Shown here piece after piece: positions 31,404-48,679 of a DNA stretch of 64,000 bases. Where the stretch lies: NCBI GenBank assembly GCA_047718615.1, contig JBDNRM010000001.1, positions 23,093 to 87,092 on the forward strand, given 5' to 3'. The DNA is from Bacillus sp. (in: firmicutes). Its GTDB lineage: Bacteria > Bacillota > Bacilli > Bacillales > Cytobacillaceae. The notes under the pieces were generated by a model. That model was not told the DNA's origin, did not search any database, and worked only from the letters and a program-made list of their open reading frames with translations. How positions within the stretch are numbered: the first letter of the stretch is position 1; each line of letters opens with the position of its first letter. The translations under genes were made by a program, and so were the position numbers.

Positions 31404-31943
31404 GTGAAAATATTGGGGCGTTATGAAGCTAATCATTCATGGATTCAAAATATTGATGAAGAATACATCATTACTCTGTATACAAAAGATAATATGAGTC
31501 TTACAGCTATTTCAAAACTATTAGGTTACGACAGGGGTACTGTTAAAAGACGTCTTGAAAAGAATGGTGTTGACATTGTTAGAAAGCCCCGTTCTGACAA
31601 ATCGAAAGATAATAGTCCTGCTATTAGGAAAGTCTACTATAAATATGGACTTCAAGCTGAAAGACGAGGATATAATTTCGATATTCCTTATGAATTTTTC
31701 ACCTATTTAACTTCACAAAAATGTCATTATTGTGGAAATAAGCCATTATCAAAAGAAATCACTAGAAGTGGACATGTTTATGTGTTTAATGGTTTAGATC
31801 GAATTGATAATAACAAACATTATACTTTGGACAATGTGATTCCATGTTGTAAGATTTGTAATCAAATGAAAAGTAATTTGGAACATCATGTCTTTATAGA
31901 ACAAGTAAGGAAAATATATTTGAAGTATCAACAAGAACTTTAA
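31404..31943 (+). CDS. Free-standing HNH/His-Me endonuclease with N-terminal HTH (likely start TTG 31413)
   Basis: CHYCG...NGLDRIDN..Y..DNVIPCCKICNQMK; GAGGTG RBS 6 nt before the TTG. Confidence 0.8.
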   Translation: MKILGRYEANHSWIQNIDEEYIITLYTKDNMSLTAISKLLGYDRGTVKRRLEKNGVDIVRKPRSDKSKDNSPAIRKVYYKYGLQAERRGYNFDIPYEFFTYLTSQKCHYCGNKPLSKEITRSGHVYVFNGLDRIDNNKHYTLDNVIPCCKICNQMKSNLEHHVFIEQVRKIYLKYQQEL

Positions 31944-31957
31944 AGGAGCTGGATCAT

Positions 31958-32086
31958 ATGGCTAAATTACCTACTAGCGAAGATGGGAAGTTATTAGCGC
32001 AATATATTAATGAAAAACTTTCTGAGATGAAAGAAGAGATCATTAAAGAAATTAAAGAATCTAAAAAAGAGACAAAAACAAAGTAG
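31958..32086 (+). CDS. 42-aa hypothetical protein after the capsid gene
   Basis: AAAGGAG RBS; MAKLPTSEDGKLLAQYINEKL...; followed by a terminator. Confidence 0.6.
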   Translation: MAKLPTSEDGKLLAQYINEKLSEMKEEIIKEIKESKKETKTK

Positions 32087-32111
32087 GCAGGGAAATTCCC
32101 TGTCTTTTTTT
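32085..32111 (+). terminator. Intrinsic terminator of the head operon
   Basis: AGGCAGGG...CCCTGTCT plus T run. Confidence 0.8.
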
Positions 32112-32124
32112 ATGAGGTGATGGA

Positions 32125-32676
32125 ATGAACCTTCGAGACATGATTAATGAGGTATTGAAAGATATTGATGATTACCTTTCTGATTCAGATATTACCGGCT
32201 GGATTAACAGAGCATTGGATGACCTGACACCAGTAGCAAAATATCAAAAAATGAGCGTAGTTTCATTGGTTGCAACAGATAAAAGTATCTTATTACCGGA
32301 TGATGTAGAAGAAATCGTTTTGTTAACGGACGATGAACAGGACTATAACGAAATTAATTTGAAAGATAAAACAGGATGCGGCTATAAAAAGTGGGGAAAC
32401 GTTTTAAGTTTTCAGCCTGTTTTTGATATAGATAAAGACTTCACCTTATATTATTATGCGAAATTACCGCACCTTGCAGCTGATACAGATATACCGGTCA
32501 TACGATCTGATTTCCATGATTTATTAGTCTTGTATGCTACTGCAAAAGCCAAGTACAAAGACGAGGTTATGGAAATGCATCAAGGTACCATGCAGGAATA
32601 CTTGGAGAGAAAACGCCAGTATATTGCTGCAGTGTCGAGTGATAATAACGAAGCATACCAAGTGAAGCTTCTGTAA
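32125..32676 (+). CDS. Head-tail adaptor (P22 gp4 / T7 gp11-like position)
   Basis: Helical N-terminus, WINRAL.DL, YYA...L..D.D.P.I..DFHDLLVLYA. Confidence 0.7.
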   Translation: MNLRDMINEVLKDIDDYLSDSDITGWINRALDDLTPVAKYQKMSVVSLVATDKSILLPDDVEEIVLLTDDEQDYNEINLKDKTGCGYKKWGNVLSFQPVFDIDKDFTLYYYAKLPHLAADTDIPVIRSDFHDLLVLYATAKAKYKDEVMEMHQGTMQEYLERKRQYIAAVSSDNNEAYQVKLL

Positions 32677-32688
32677 GGGGGTAAATAG

Positions 32689-32943
32689 ATGGCTAGAGGA
32701 AATATGCGCCCACAACCATGGGTGAAGAATATAGAAGTATATACGGACTTCTCGGGCGGTTTAAATTCTGTTACAGACCATACAAAAATGGCTGATAAAG
32801 AGGTAGCTGAATTGGTTAATATGGATATTTCTCCAAGAGGAACATTGCGGAGGCGGTCAGGAATGATTTTTCACCAGCGCAGAGCCAATTGGGGAGACAT
32901 CAAAGGGAAAACATGGGGAGAATTGAATGAAATGGAGGTGTGA
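32689..32943 (+). CDS. N-terminal segment of the tail nozzle, encoded as a separate ORF
   Basis: DFSGGLN...E...LVN.DI..RG.LRRR.G is the typical nozzle N-terminus. Confidence 0.7.
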   Translation: MARGNMRPQPWVKNIEVYTDFSGGLNSVTDHTKMADKEVAELVNMDISPRGTLRRRSGMIFHQRRANWGDIKGKTWGELNEMEV

Positions 32944-33893
32944 CGATGGCAGAATATACAGATAATCTTAATTTGTTCGAGCCAGGTTCTGATGACAACA
33001 TTGGAATCGAATCTTCGCTAAAGGATAATTTCGATAAGATAGATTCTAAACTTGGAGATGGATTAAAAGATGCATCCGGTCAAGTGCATACATCACTAGG
33101 GACGAGATTAAACAGCGAACAAACAGATTATGAAACAACAAAATCAATCGTTACAGACCTATCCCAAAAGGAATACAACGTCATAAAAGACGATTTTACG
33201 AATCAAACACTTGCTAATAGGGGAAATGTATTGGTTGCTCCTGAAAACACGATGGCAGCCTTCCAACATGCTCTAGAAGCTGGATATTGGGGCATTAAAA
33301 CTGATTTACGTAAATCATCCGATAATAAATGGGTATTAATCACAGATGAAACAGTAGATCGTACTTCAAATGGGTTCGGTGCGGTATCAGGAAAGAATTT
33401 AACGCAGCTGAAAGCACTTGATTTTGGTAATAAATTTGATTCGTTTTATACGGATGAAAAGATACCGACACTAGAAGAATTCCTTTGGTTCTGTAGAAAA
33501 AATAACATCGTTGCTTATATCGAGTTACGGATTGATATAACAAACGGTGAAGCATCTGAACTAGCCACTATAATTGATAACTACTTTATGACCAATCGAA
33601 CATGTATCATTTCCAATAATTCAACCAATCTAACCAAATTTAGAGCTTACTCACAGTTATTGCCATTAGGACTAGCTACTGGTACAGTGACTCAAACATA
33701 TGTCAATTACGCAAAAGATATTAAAAACTGTTTACTCTTTGTAAGAGCATCTGATTTGACAATCGATTCTGTTAAATTAGCAACTGCAGCCAAGATAAGT
33801 GTGGATGCTTGGTACGCATACTCTTACGATGACGTAGAAACAGCATTTAAAAACGGAGCTCGAAGGGTTGCTAGCTCCAATGTAAATTATTAA
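32940..33893 (+). CDS. Tail fibre/spike with degenerate GDPD (glycerophosphodiesterase) domain
   Basis: YTDNLNLFEP...NFDKID anchor; NRG....PENTMAAF..A, D.RKSSD, D.T.DRT, IPTLEE. Confidence 0.8.
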   Translation: MTMAEYTDNLNLFEPGSDDNIGIESSLKDNFDKIDSKLGDGLKDASGQVHTSLGTRLNSEQTDYETTKSIVTDLSQKEYNVIKDDFTNQTLANRGNVLVAPENTMAAFQHALEAGYWGIKTDLRKSSDNKWVLITDETVDRTSNGFGAVSGKNLTQLKALDFGNKFDSFYTDEKIPTLEEFLWFCRKNNIVAYIELRIDITNGEASELATIIDNYFMTNRTCIISNNSTNLTKFRAYSQLLPLGLATGTVTQTYVNYAKDIKNCLLFVRASDLTIDSVKLATAAKISVDAWYAYSYDDVETAFKNGARRVASSNVNY

Positions 33894-33904
33894 GGAGTGA
33901 TGAT

Positions 33905-34699
33905 ATGCAGCCGAATGCAACGTGCACTTATACATTTAAGCCTGGCCACCATGATTTATTAAAGATGGTCGCGAGAGACAAACGATTAGATGGAAACGGA
34001 TCATTAAGCGTTTCTAACGGAATATTAAAATGTAAGTCTAATAGTATCACAGAACGTGCTTATGTATTTTGGAACACTTACTTACCATTAGGTGGATGGA
34101 TGGAAGTACAGTTCGTAGCAAAAGCCGTATCTGGTTCAGGAAATGTCTCTGGGGATGTGTATGAAGAGAACGATTTCGTGGTAGAAGGTGACATAGATCC
34201 TATATCAAGCAATGTTGATATTACAGGAGATTGGAAGCCGTATCGATTTATCATACAAGGAGGCATGAGCAACCGTTATGCCCGTTTGGTCTTTGGGCTA
34301 TGGAAGAGTGTTGTTGGAGAAGTATGGTTCCGAAATATTAATATTAAAGTGTATAACTCTAATATTGTTCCAGAGCAACGATTTGCTGTTATAAAGGGAT
34401 ATAAAAACAATTGGTACTTAGATGATAAAGTGGGACGTTTCGGAAATCAAGGTGTATCAAGTGTAGAAGTAGAGGATGATCGTTTGGTTGTTACGATAGC
34501 GGGACCACGAACATGGGGAATGCCTGTTATGACAGCGCACCTGCAACATCGAAATAATCCAGGATATAGAGCAGAAGTTTATACATGGGATAGCTTTACT
34601 CAATGCAGGATTTACATTGTAAATAAGGATGGAAACGTTGTTTCTCCAACATCGATCCAAGAAGAATTAACCATATCCTTTATGGCTTACGCTAGATAG
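33905..34699 (+). CDS. Putative carbohydrate-binding, beta-rich virion protein
   Basis: Beta-rich with DWKPYRF and GEVWFRNI jelly-roll-like segments; position in the tail module. Confidence 0.45.
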   Translation: MQPNATCTYTFKPGHHDLLKMVARDKRLDGNGSLSVSNGILKCKSNSITERAYVFWNTYLPLGGWMEVQFVAKAVSGSGNVSGDVYEENDFVVEGDIDPISSNVDITGDWKPYRFIIQGGMSNRYARLVFGLWKSVVGEVWFRNINIKVYNSNIVPEQRFAVIKGYKNNWYLDDKVGRFGNQGVSSVEVEDDRLVVTIAGPRTWGMPVMTAHLQHRNNPGYRAEVYTWDSFTQCRIYIVNKDGNVVSPTSIQEELTISFMAYAR

Positions 34700-34709
34700 G
34701 GGTGAATAC

Positions 34710-36494
34710 ATGGCAACATGGGGAATTTTAAAAAAGAATACATCTATTCCTAGTAATCGTAACGGTTATGGACAAGGGTATTTCCGTTTTTACAAAGAAG
34801 ATAGCAGCTACGAAGCTATTATCGCTGTAAATGGACGTTTAATAAGAGAAGGTGGCGATTTACCTATTGAGGGGTTGCCTGATGGTTTTCAAACGGAACG
34901 TATGATTGAAGCGGTGCAGTGGAATGGAATACTTTACATTGCAACTGGAACAAAATTAGTTGAATATAACGGTGTTACAGCAAAGGTAGTTGATCCATAC
35001 AAGGTGCTGCCGTTAGAAGCTCTTTATGTTGGGACCAATGCATTAGCTGATGATCCTGAAAATTACATGCAAGACGGACAAGAAACGTATTTACGAGTGG
35101 ACGGAGCAGTTCCATCGTTGCAAAAAGGGGTTGCTAATACAAAAACAACCTTTACAGCATTTGTTTCTAAACCTGAAGGGGTAACAATCGAATATAAATG
35201 GCAGTATCGTTTATCTAATAGCGATACTTTTTTATTGGGTAAAAATTGGAGCACAGATAAAACTTGGGATTTCACTCCTAAAAACGTTGGTAATTACACC
35301 ATTCAGGTTTCTGCAAGAGTGCAGGGAACAGCAGAAGAACCAAATGTTGATGCACCAGAAGTTTATCAAATTCCTATTTATACTGTCACTTCTTATGATG
35401 AAAACGAAAAAGCAGACACTTCGCAAATTCATACATGCAATCGCATCCTACTTCATTGGAGTAGGCTAATCGTTTATGGAGACACGAAGAACGCAAGAAA
35501 CATCTATATTTCGCATTTAAACAATTCAAGGTATTTTCCTACCAATCACACTTTAGAATTCGAAAGCGGAGAACAAGAAGCGTTACAAAAGATTGTGAGA
35601 TATAGAGATTATCTTGTAGCATTTTTACCAACTTCTATACAAGCTTTATACGGACAATCTCCTGAAGATTTTAAACGTGTGGTTGTGCACACGGGATTGG
35701 GCTGTGTTGCTCCCGAAACACCTAAAGTAATGGGTAATTACATTGCTTTTTTATCGAAGCAAGGAGTGCAAATTTTAAAGTCTGCGGGTTTAACAGAAGA
35801 GAAAATAAACGTTGAAAAAATAGATAGCAATATTGATAACTTAATACCTGTTGATAGTACTGCATGTGCTGTTGTTTACAATAATCAGTATCATATTTGC
35901 TTCCCTAAAAATAAAACAAGGTTTCGTTTTTATTATGAACTTGGAGTTTGGACAAAAGATGAATCACCACATATGGACTTTTCTCGTTTGTTTGAATGGG
36001 ATGGAGATTTAGTAGGACAGTCGACGGAAACAGGGAATATTGTTATGTTTATTGGTTCTGTTTTTAATGATTTAGGATTTGTATATGAAGATCGAGTCAT
36101 AACAAAATCTTTCGATTTTAACGAACATCATAACCACAAAAAATATAAAGAGCTTCAATTGATGTTAGGAAGAGGAAATAGTGATGTGGATTTATCAGTG
36201 CTGGTTAATGTAGATGATAATCCCGTTTTTAACACGATAGAAGGTAAATCCGAGATTGTAGAAGGAACCGTACGTTGGAAAGAAGTTTTATTGACTAACA
36301 TTTCATTAGATGCTGGAACAGTATTTGGAGCATGGGAACTAGGAGTATCTGCTTTTGATAATACAAAGCAAAGCAAAGTTAGTATTCCATTATCTGCTAA
36401 AGGATACGTTACGTCCATTGATATAAGACATACCGGAGATGGACCAAATGTTATTTTAAGTTTGGGGATAATATTTAAAATTAAAAAACCGTAG
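34710..36494 (+). CDS. Tail nozzle / tubular protein B-like, main body
   Basis: Beta-propeller-like repeats (EAVQWNGILYIATG, RLIVYG, IYISHLN..YFP, GCVAP.T); lacks its own DFSGG N-terminus. Confidence 0.7.
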   Translation: MATWGILKKNTSIPSNRNGYGQGYFRFYKEDSSYEAIIAVNGRLIREGGDLPIEGLPDGFQTERMIEAVQWNGILYIATGTKLVEYNGVTAKVVDPYKVLPLEALYVGTNALADDPENYMQDGQETYLRVDGAVPSLQKGVANTKTTFTAFVSKPEGVTIEYKWQYRLSNSDTFLLGKNWSTDKTWDFTPKNVGNYTIQVSARVQGTAEEPNVDAPEVYQIPIYTVTSYDENEKADTSQIHTCNRILLHWSRLIVYGDTKNARNIYISHLNNSRYFPTNHTLEFESGEQEALQKIVRYRDYLVAFLPTSIQALYGQSPEDFKRVVVHTGLGCVAPETPKVMGNYIAFLSKQGVQILKSAGLTEEKINVEKIDSNIDNLIPVDSTACAVVYNNQYHICFPKNKTRFRFYYELGVWTKDESPHMDFSRLFEWDGDLVGQSTETGNIVMFIGSVFNDLGFVYEDRVITKSFDFNEHHNHKKYKELQLMLGRGNSDVDLSVLVNVDDNPVFNTIEGKSEIVEGTVRWKEVLLTNISLDAGTVFGAWELGVSAFDNTKQSKVSIPLSAKGYVTSIDIRHTGDGPNVILSLGIIFKIKKP

Positions 36495-36504
36495 GTGATA
36501 AAAT

Positions 36505-38316
36505 ATGGCTCGAATAGAAGAAGGTATTTTTCGTAATTGGGCAAATGGAGATCGAATGTCCCCCGATGATTATAAAAGAGAAAGAGAAATATTACGTGTA
36601 GCAATTAATGATATTGATGCAAACGTTGGAATATTGCAGCCAGTAAGTATAGAAGGAATAAAAAATGAAATTAATACGGCTAAAGGGGACGAACTTTCTT
36701 TAGATGCTCGTTTTACAAAAACAGAAACAAATATAGGTGATATATCTCAAATTGAACAATCTAATATTATTGATGCGTTGAAAGATAAAGAACAAAAATT
36801 AGTAACAGTTAATGAACAGTTGGCGACTATTGGTAATCAAATGAAAGAACAAGAAAATTTATTAGATACTGTTAAATCAAAATTTTTGCCAAATAAAGTA
36901 TCTAAATTCCAGCAAAACTTTCATTTGAATCCAGTGGACGGGTTTATGAATGATATTCAGTCCGCTTTCTTCCGTAATGGAGAATGGCATTTCTATTTCC
37001 TTTTCAATAAAGATTTTAAACATGGTGGGAATGGGACAGAATGGTATCATGTTACGACAAAAGATTGGGTAAGCTTTGAAAATCATGGGGTTGCTATTCC
37101 TAAATACACTACCCCACAAGGGGACGTAGCTTCCGGAACCATTTATGAGGACTATGATAATACCTTAGGGTTTGGGATGAATGCGGTTATCGCCTACCTA
37201 ACATCGTACGGAAATGCGGGTCAAACAACAAACATATGGTACTCAAACGATAACGGTTTTACTTTTAAACCCTATAAGTTTAACCCAATTCAAAATAACC
37301 CTACTGGAAGTGCAGACTTCCGTGACCCGTATGTTTTTAGAATAGATGGTATTTTTTACATGTATCTAGCAGAAGGCGGCAAGTTTGGTATTTACAAGTC
37401 AACGAACGGTATTAATTTCTCTTATTTACATTCTATCATGATAGGAGGACTAGGATTATTAGAATGTCCTAATTTATTTTTAATGGATGTAGATGGCGAC
37501 CCTAACCATAAAAGGTGGGTATTGTTCTTTGGTGCGAATGGTGGCGATGAGGTTTCGACTGGTACATACTATATATCCGGTATGACTACTAATGGTGTAT
37601 TTACTCCCGAAACACCAGCGAAACGATTAGACAGCGGACCCGATTATTACGGTGCTAAAATATTCACAAAAGAAGATGATAACCCGAATGATGTCTTATT
37701 ATCCACAGCATGGATAGGGAATTGGGGATATACAACAAAAGTACCGTTTGAAGGGTTCGGCGGTAGCATGAGCTTATGCCGTGAATTACGATTAAAATCA
37801 CACGACGGATATACGATAGAAACCAAATTACTTCCTTCTTTTCGAGATTATTTAAGTAATGCGGTAACAGGTTATGCGATAGATATTAATAATGATAGAC
37901 GTATACTACCTTTCCTAAATGGGGAAAAATTTTACTTAAAAGCGATATTTAGAAAAAAAGATAATCCTATTACTAGTAAGTTCGGTGTGGTAATAAGAGG
38001 TGAAAACTATACGACTACATGGACGTATAACCCACCAAACCAACAATATGATGTGTCACGAGAATGTAATGATTTCCCTAACAATAGTATTTTTGATAAA
38101 AAAAGGTTTGTAAATTTACCTTTTAACGGGGAATGGATGGAAGTACATTTTGTTGTGGATTCTACATCAGTAGAAATAGTGTTACCCGACGATACCATTT
38201 ATACGATGGCTAAATATGGGACGGTAGGAAAAGAGGATATACTTTTATATTGTGACGGGGAATGTATAGTGGACTATGAATATTATGATATTTTAAAAAC
38301 AGCACAGGGGGAATAA
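36505..38316 (+). CDS. Tail spike with GH32 levanase-like domain
   Basis: N-terminal virion anchor and coiled coil; FMND, FRDP and LECP catalytic motifs; GNGTEW.H and GVAIPKY as in LevB-type enzymes. Confidence 0.85.
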   Translation: MARIEEGIFRNWANGDRMSPDDYKREREILRVAINDIDANVGILQPVSIEGIKNEINTAKGDELSLDARFTKTETNIGDISQIEQSNIIDALKDKEQKLVTVNEQLATIGNQMKEQENLLDTVKSKFLPNKVSKFQQNFHLNPVDGFMNDIQSAFFRNGEWHFYFLFNKDFKHGGNGTEWYHVTTKDWVSFENHGVAIPKYTTPQGDVASGTIYEDYDNTLGFGMNAVIAYLTSYGNAGQTTNIWYSNDNGFTFKPYKFNPIQNNPTGSADFRDPYVFRIDGIFYMYLAEGGKFGIYKSTNGINFSYLHSIMIGGLGLLECPNLFLMDVDGDPNHKRWVLFFGANGGDEVSTGTYYISGMTTNGVFTPETPAKRLDSGPDYYGAKIFTKEDDNPNDVLLSTAWIGNWGYTTKVPFEGFGGSMSLCRELRLKSHDGYTIETKLLPSFRDYLSNAVTGYAIDINNDRRILPFLNGEKFYLKAIFRKKDNPITSKFGVVIRGENYTTTWTYNPPNQQYDVSRECNDFPNNSIFDKKRFVNLPFNGEWMEVHFVVDSTSVEIVLPDDTIYTMAKYGTVGKEDILLYCDGECIVDYEYYDILKTAQGE

Positions 38317-48660: not shown

Positions 48661-48679
48661 TCCTGATATGATTATGGTC
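48661..48679 (+). other. attP-like junction core between the tandem copies
   Basis: Phage right end + TCCTGATATGATTATGGTC + phage left end; no comGA sequence on either side. Confidence 0.9.

Follow-up and report, generated by a model that had tools for sequence, protein, structure and literature searches.

We analyzed a 64,000-nucleotide stretch of a Bacillus sp. genome (contig JBDNRM010000001.1, positions 23,093 to 87,092 of the forward strand; hereafter the window) that contains a prophage whose tail nozzle gene is split in two, with other phage genes lying in the break. The adaptor and portal of this prophage are both of the SU10 type (Pfam), and the phage is an SU10-like temperate podovirus. 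The split-nozzle operon is on the forward strand, begins after a terminator-like hairpin at 32085-32105, just 5' of the adaptor gene, and comprises six genes that are spaced by 10-12 nucleotides or overlap; no convincing internal terminator was found within this block. It opens with a head-to-tail adaptor of 183 amino acids (aa; 32125-32676; Pfam PF24175 SU10_adaptor, E 2.3e-16), followed by an 84-aa open reading frame (ORF84, 32689-32943), here called the N-piece, which aligns with the N-termini of unsplit nozzles. The third gene encodes a GDPD protein, fiber A, whose ORF spans 317 aa at 32940-33893 and likely starts at the ATG at 32946 (315 aa, 32946-33893); it belongs to a PHROG tail-fiber family and carries a fiber-type anchor. 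Next come ORF264 (33905-34699), a putative accessory protein predicted to have two beta-sandwich domains, and ORF594 (34710-36494; 594 aa), here called the C-piece. The block closes with fiber B, a 603-aa protein with a C-terminal GH32 levanase domain (36505-38316; Pfam Glyco_hydro_32N, E 6e-54). With the adaptor ending at 32676 and the N-piece starting at 32689, the nozzle gene stands directly downstream of the adaptor gene, as it does in podovirus nozzle operons. The split nozzle arrangement, which many Bacillus-type phages share, carries no GenBank annotation.

Two ORFs match one nozzle gene

The N-piece has a ribosome-binding site (GGGGGT) 7 nucleotides 5' of its start and encodes the nozzle N-terminus DFSGGLN...RG.LRRRSGM, followed by a tail with two tryptophans (Trp), ANWGDIKGKTWGEL, and a stop codon 8 residues after W76. 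The C-piece has a ribosome-binding site of its own (GGGGTGA) ahead of its ATG and starts MATWGIL, which places a Trp at position 4 (W4); the GQGYFRFY strand follows 18 residues on, and then come the propeller, a PKD-like insert and the C-terminal part. A single gene spans both ORFs. In tblastn searches, residues 3-60 of ORF84 and residues 18-593 of ORF594 both matched gp11 (663 aa) of the Paenibacillus podovirus API480, with one reading frame for both and six codons between the two matches, and ORF594 was 36% identical to gp11 over 97% of its length. The first-pass annotation of the window had taken the 84-aa ORF for a nozzle N-terminus and the 594-aa ORF for its continuation, and these alignments bear out both assignments. 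It had also put RRxG and QGxFxFY about a dozen residues apart in homologs, which agrees with our measurements: the distance from RRxG[MF] to QGYF was 10-14 residues in 49 of 50 unsplit homologs, the exception being P0084, in which an inserted domain extends it to 123 residues.

The fold of the window proteins was read through the model of an unsplit homolog, the 644-aa nozzle of a Bacillus sp. J37 prophage (L005), which is 38% identical to ORF594. The AlphaFold2 (AF2) model of this protein (pLDDT 84.6, pTM 0.77) was matched by Foldseek to cyanophage A4 tail tubular protein B (9k09_U, 3e-20) and to SU10 gp17 (7z4b, 1e-18), as well as to T7 gp12, P22 gp10 and Sf6 gp8, with top matches spanning E 1e-20 to 1e-12. 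In the model, short strands at residues 39-63 lead into a loop at residues 64-75 and then into the GQGYFRYY strand, which is the first long one; the split point maps to this loop. With a profile of the family, residues 7-75 of "Tail tubular protein B" (PDB 9k09_U) gave a weak match (E 0.03). We also considered whether N-piece residues 14-57 represent a repeated propeller blade and dropped this idea, as the seven-stretch match behind it, P0138, is a low-complexity IQ-repeat protein.

Conservation of the split

Among the best ~120 listed homologs of ORF594, 52-54 were C-pieces, which start no more than 30 residues from the QGYF strand and lack the nozzle N-terminus. Searches with ORF84 returned about 20 clusters of 74-88-aa proteins, including homologs of 81-86 aa. 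We read ten further split loci (L004, L017-L024, and L027 from the isolated Bacillus phage PK1), and the gene order was the same in all ten: adaptor, N-piece, fiber gene or genes, C-piece, second fiber. The GenBank record of PK1 presents it as a complete phage genome and names its Bacillus host. Its C-piece is ~24% identical to ORF594, and its 74-aa N-piece (L027 5777-6001; OM112209 ~35795-36019), which ends ATWQDIGGKKWSEL, has no GenBank CDS. A scan of genome contigs with the C-piece profile yielded three loci only, and a search of 269 genomes of the same family found no close relative.

Both pieces are thus kept in split relatives down to ~24% identity, each with its own ribosome-binding site. 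This conservation strongly implies that the nozzle, which is of the tail tubular protein B type, is made as two separately translated chains. A naturally split beta-propeller assembled from two chains had been one of the two explanations offered in the first-pass annotation; the two-chain part of that proposal stands, and the site of the break is better described as a fiber-dock loop (see below) than as the propeller.

Two observations on gene calls accompany these loci. The PK1 C-piece is listed as a hypothetical protein from 39292, and a GTG at ~39244 gives the start TTWDKT. In several relatives a small ORF of 67-82 aa (MFIISCKV...FDGQVSLKPKE) that matches no family and is absent from the window lies beside the N-piece (L019 5022-5225, L020 5018-5221, L021 5013-5225, and L022 4684-4890, where it precedes the N-piece).

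A tryptophan motif at both new termini

The two termini created by the split carry a conserved Trp pattern. Every one of the 28 N-pieces has, near its C-terminus, two Trp residues exactly 8 residues apart (W..[IL]....W..[LI]), and its chain stops 3-12 residues beyond the second of them. In the window this pair is encoded at 32890-32928 (WGDIKGKT-WGEL), with W68 at 32890-32892 and W76 at 32914-32916. On the other side of the break, a Trp is found at residue 2-6 of each of the 52 genuine C-pieces, 1-5 residues after the start and at a fixed distance of 15 or 18 residues before QGYF; W4 of the C-piece is invariant. The motif also co-varies across the break: the N-piece tail ANWGDIKGKTWGEL, which runs on for a few residues to its stop, is paired with the C-piece start MATWGIL in the window, TTWSDIGDKKWSEITSG (then stop) with MKWSEV in L023, and PIWSDIKGKTWGEL (then stop) with MVLWKD in L021. 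In unsplit nozzles the loop at the position of the split has 10-14 residues without this motif, and no continuous Trp dock was found at the loop in the unsplit relatives or in any full-length protein matched by ORF84.

The pattern resembles the fiber dock of the SU10 nozzle, gp17. Cryo-electron microscopy of SU10 revealed a "short tail fiber dock loop" that extends from propeller blade 1 of the nozzle (PMC9509320), in which the residues Trp839, Trp847 and Trp857 are arranged as a pseudo-threefold star, one subunit of the trimeric fiber gp16 being bound by each (PMC9509320). In SU10, long fibers sit on the adaptor and short fibers on the nozzle dock. The SU10 sequence at the dock is ERGPIWSDFQEITWDDPSIKELVWRKD, and within it IWSDFQEITWDD...LVWRK holds the dock Trp residues, W839 and W847 lying in the part that the N-piece tail resembles. 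Compared with L021, the SU10 segment ERGPIWSDFQEITWDDPSIKELVWRK lines up with RRPIWSDIKGKTWGEL, the stop codon and then MVLWKD, and the flanking residues are very similar. The two nozzles share the overall podovirus nozzle fold (the unsplit homolog matching gp17 at Foldseek E 1e-18), three Trp residues spaced 8 and ~10 in the local sequence IWSD.xxxTW[GD][DE] ... [LV]W[RK], and a fiber gene that adjoins the nozzle gene. By analogy, we infer that W68, W76 and W4 would form a pseudo-threefold fiber dock like that of W839, W847 and W857 in SU10 gp17.

Genes nested in the break

Fiber A begins with an N-terminal anchor, MAEYTDNLNLFEPG...NFDKID, and continues into a GDPD domain (Pfam GDPD, E 5e-23). 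This anchor (anchor A; consensus MAEYT.NLNL.KPG..D...[VI][ED]..L..NF..ID) heads the first large gene in every break, whatever distal domain follows it. An anchor-A fiber was present in 11 of 11 split loci and in none of the five unsplit loci (L001, L005, L006, L028 and L029). The content of the break is otherwise variable: most loci have a GDPD protein of 315-325 aa plus a protein of 264-285 aa, L023 has a single 483-aa GDPD protein, L024 has a 637-aa pectate-lyase-like beta-helix protein, and PK1 has an 806-aa beta-helix protein together with a NeuD/PglB-type acetyltransferase.

The same anchor (MPEYTNNLGLYKP...) also occurs outside podoviruses. It heads a gene annotated "tail fiber, WTA interaction" in a siphovirus, Bacillus phage 056SW001B (L026 7001-8545), where the gene is located between the capsid and head-to-tail adaptor genes, and it is found in six related B. 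subtilis phage records and in vB_BpsS-36. The double-Trp motif was not found in the 14-kb siphovirus stretch of L026, and the anchor must therefore use another dock there.

Both genes between the nozzle halves had at first been described as fiber-like. This description fits the first of them, a GDPD protein with a fiber-type anchor, whereas the second, ORF264, models as CBM4/CBM22-like domains. ORF264 had no Pfam or PHROG match; its AF2 model (pLDDT 80) consists of two beta-sandwich domains, for which Foldseek returned CBM4 (1gui, 2e-6), CBM22 and C-terminal domains of phage tailspikes. Homologs of ORF264 stand at the same position in seven loci. Judging from the model, ORF264 probably serves the short GDPD fiber as an accessory that binds carbohydrate. 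No similarity was found between ORF264 and the domain that is inserted in the same nozzle loop of P0083.

Fiber B carries the anchor MARIEEGIFRNW...DYKREREILR (consensus MARI....[FL]K.W...D.....DY..ERE.LR), which occurs beside split and unsplit nozzles alike. Between the window and its closest relatives, the nested genes are 80-85% identical and the nozzle halves 75-82%, whereas fiber B is 26-31% identical. The distal domain of fiber B is GH32 in the window and wholly different in L017 (8796-10901, 701 aa) and L018 (8798-11092, 764 aa), with the anchor kept. The contrast between fiber B and the nested genes indicates that recent host-range change in this lineage came from fiber B and not from the nested cassette.

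Phylogeny of split and unsplit nozzles

A tree of 118 rows, built on the sequence from QGYF onward, placed the window nozzle inside a fully supported clade of 42 proteins, 42 of which are split. A second clade, of 23 proteins, mixes split and unsplit forms. Once the class of N-terminally truncated gene calls had been corrected, we counted eight changes between the split and unsplit states on the tree, seven of which are forced by well-supported branches. In the unsplit members of the mixed clade the loop is an ordinary one of 12 aa that holds no Trp; the state changes therefore look as if the whole 5' module had been replaced and not as if a deletion between repeats had occurred. The dock-plus-fiber block is apparently a module exchanged between lineages, as read from these sequences; it behaves as an exchangeable module because conserved nozzle sequence flanks it on both sides.

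Related split and unsplit phages were also found in one sample: JGI sample 3300080737 holds two related phage contigs of 44-47 kb, L023 with a split nozzle and L028 with an unsplit one, whose nozzles are 46% and adaptors 45% identical. In other lineages the nozzle loop is not split but holds domains inserted in frame, of ~115 residues in P0083 and P0084 (754-756 aa) and of ~450 residues in P0161 (1011 aa), which makes the loop a general insertion hot spot.

Proposed assembly of the nozzle and its fiber

We think it probable that these observations describe a two-chain nozzle in which the break lies within a fiber dock and the genes of the docked fiber are nested in that break. After the adaptor, the conserved N-terminal segment of the nozzle would come from the 84-aa N-piece, the beta-propeller and the remainder of the nozzle from the 594-aa C-piece, and the two chains would come together in the virion. 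The break would fall in a surface loop that is replaced by the 8-residue Trp repeat, with W68 and W76 contributed by the N-piece and W4 by the C-piece. Trimeric fiber A, encoded directly after the N-piece, would then bind the three-Trp dock by its conserved N-terminal anchor, with ORF264 acting as a carbohydrate-binding accessory, and fiber B (GH32 here, and the second fiber in all relatives) would attach elsewhere, in the adaptor region. Fiber A is assigned to the Trp dock and fiber B to the adaptor region because SU10 mounts its short fibers on the dock and its long fibers on the adaptor; by this analogy, the placement of fiber A on the Trp dock is well motivated. More tentatively, we suggest that the split itself may be the device and not damage that the phage tolerates, with the free ends of two polypeptides making a plug-in site for an extra trimeric receptor-binding protein, as a portable module moved by homologous recombination.

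The comparison with SU10 has differences as well as likenesses. In SU10 a single uninterrupted loop of the 1005-aa chain (residues 839-857) forms the dock, whereas here the motif is distributed two-plus-one over two polypeptides, and the SU10 fiber gene lies upstream of the nozzle gene, whereas here the fiber genes lie inside the break. Other points weigh against the proposed docking. The SU10 dock is toward the C-terminal end of the propeller sequence and the motif described here is near the N-terminus. No sequence homology was detectable by hhalign between the nozzle family and SU10 gp17 (probability <1%), nor between anchor A and SU10 gp16 (probability <1%). A search of the first 30 kb of SU10 in all six frames with a 17-column profile of the N-piece tails did give RGPIWSD, which contains W839, as its top match (E 0.38); this match is not significant alone, and the matching of the motif by eye is post hoc. 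Because no homology is detectable outside the motif, common descent and convergence with SU10 are indistinguishable. Lastly, the role of the Trp segments might be no more than to hold the two chains to each other.

Alternative explanations

This last point leads to the alternative that survives best: the nozzle is made of two chains, but the Trp repeats are a fastener that pairs or packs the fragments, and the nested fiber attaches elsewhere. Such a role would suit a motif that stands exactly at the two new termini and is invariant there, WGDIKGKTWGEL could form a Trp-zipper-like hairpin, and the failure to detect homology between the anchor and SU10 gp16 would be expected. We nevertheless regard it as unlikely, as it leaves unexplained both the presence of an anchor-A fiber gene in every break and the resemblance to a dock of solved function.

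A second alternative concerns a short repeat. The first-pass annotation had noted that AACATGGGGA occurs at 32910 and 34715, encoding TWG in both ORFs, and had proposed that the cassette between the copies can be lost by recombination, switching the host range. The repeat is as described, with one copy overlooked: the 64-kb window holds three copies of the word where shuffles predict 0.10, in ORF84 (32910-32919), inside ORF264 (34510-34519, PRTWGMP) and at the start of the C-piece (34715-34724), and all three copies are in the same codon phase, each reading xTWG. Removal of the 1,805 bp from 32910 to 34714 is likewise in frame and joins 77 and 589 residues into a 666-aa protein. The proposal would make the repeats a working recombination substrate from which the cassette is deleted at a useful frequency, restoring the 666-aa nozzle. 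In its favor are the three 10-mers where 0.1 were expected, the in-frame outer pair, and at least seven changes of state on the tree. Ten bases, however, are too short for efficient homologous recombination, and the repeat is not conserved, a AACATGGGGA-type repeat being absent in L017-L022, L004 and L024. When the N-piece tail was compared with the C-piece head in nine other loci, the longest word in common measured 5-9 bp in eight of them (9 bp in L017, located elsewhere; 7 bp in L018; 5-7 bp in L019, L020, L004, L021, L022 and L024) and reached 12 bp in L023 only. Logan contigs of three runs, X1-X3, from a food-fermentation metagenome study showed the split arrangement only, and the deletion joint was not found in them, with the limit that contigs could miss rare variants. 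Moreover, the unsplit relatives in the mixed clade have 12-aa loops that hold no Trp relic, and among close relatives the cassette co-diverges with the nozzle. Taken together, these data make a deletable cassette very unlikely. On the sequence, the outer two copies are a by-product of the Trp motif, being the codons of Trp repeats 2 and 3, and the third copy, whose Trp is only semi-conserved in ORF264 homologs, is probably a coincidence of preferred T-W-G codons.

Less likely still is that an inserted cassette has broken the nozzle gene and that the prophage is defective. The gene is interrupted, the assembly holds the prophage as a tandem dimer, and virions are not known, all of which a defective prophage would account for; the split is nonetheless kept from 80% to ~24% identity, with both pieces intact and the motifs invariant at the new termini, and it is present in phage PK1, a complete genome with a named Bacillus host. 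The retention of the split and of both pieces over this range, PK1 included, excludes pseudogenization. Least likely of all is that one chain is restored only after the gene has been transcribed or translated, through an intron or intein, ribosomal bypassing or a frameshift: the repeat ends in GGA, the codon used for both take-off and landing in T4 gene 60, but two conserved protein genes, each with start signals of its own, occupy the interval, relatives differ in the frame of the next gene with respect to the N-piece, 1.8 kb is far above any known bypass, no intein-sized sequence is present, and no Rfam match at E <= 1 was found in 32500-34900. A programmed frameshift joining the N-piece to fiber A was considered separately and rejected, as there is no proper in-frame slippery heptamer and the frame relation varies among relatives.

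Comparison with known systems

The nearest comparison is with the unsplit nozzles of the same family, in API480 (gp11, 663 aa), phage SV21 and the Bacillus sp. J37 prophage (644 aa), which are homologous over their full length at 36-38% identity. They share the order adaptor, nozzle, fiber B with the split loci but differ in having a single chain with a 10-14-aa loop, without the Trp repeat and without an anchor-A fiber.

Genes in pieces are known from other phages, among them nrdA of Aeromonas phage Aeh1, which is split by the homing endonuclease gene mobE, and the split DNA polymerase genes of T4-like phages. As in those cases, inserted DNA has divided an essential gene into two separately translated chains that must reassemble. 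Here, unlike there, the insert is the gene of a structural partner and not a selfish endonuclease, and a conserved motif stands at both new termini, which suggests that the split itself is used. No homing endonuclease was found in the break, whose ORFs encode the GDPD fiber and the CBM-like protein; the one HNH gene, at 31404-31943, is 1 kb upstream.

Branched podophages with several receptor-binding proteins offer a further parallel. Klebsiella phages KP32 and K11 are reported to have an anchor-branching domain and a docking peptide (PMC13352976); they likewise mount two different receptor-binding proteins on one short tail, each by a short conserved N-terminal peptide (PMC13352976). Their second receptor-binding protein docks on the first (PMC13352976), whereas here we infer that the extra fiber would dock on the split nozzle.

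Nozzle proteins and Trp-based fiber docks are already known; in the literature searched, we found no description of a nozzle gene stably split at the dock with the genes of the presumed docked fiber in the break. If the two-chain nozzle with a dock at its break is correct, it would be a second, independent three-Trp solution to placing a threefold fiber on a single nozzle subunit, and it would mean that a fiber dock can be assembled from two chains. It would also explain some fifty "truncated" nozzle genes and some twenty orphan 80-aa ORFs in Bacillaceae prophages, would offer those who engineer Gram-positive podophages a natural, recombination-friendly site at which receptor-binding proteins can be added or exchanged, and would show a route by which a structural gene is divided and yet keeps its function.

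Prophage setting

The prophage is 43,257 bp long and is present as a perfect head-to-tail tandem dimer, with one copy at window positions 5404-48660 and the second starting at 48661, filling the window to 64000 and running on to C1:115018. Either the lysogen really carries two prophages in tandem or the dimer is an artefact of the assembly. A 9-bp core, TCCTGATAT, flanks the dimer and joins its two copies. The insertion splits a gene whose flanks translate as ...ILRHDPDI/IMVGEIRDAETA..., and from this sequence the gene that holds the prophage looks like a comGA/PilB-type ATPase.

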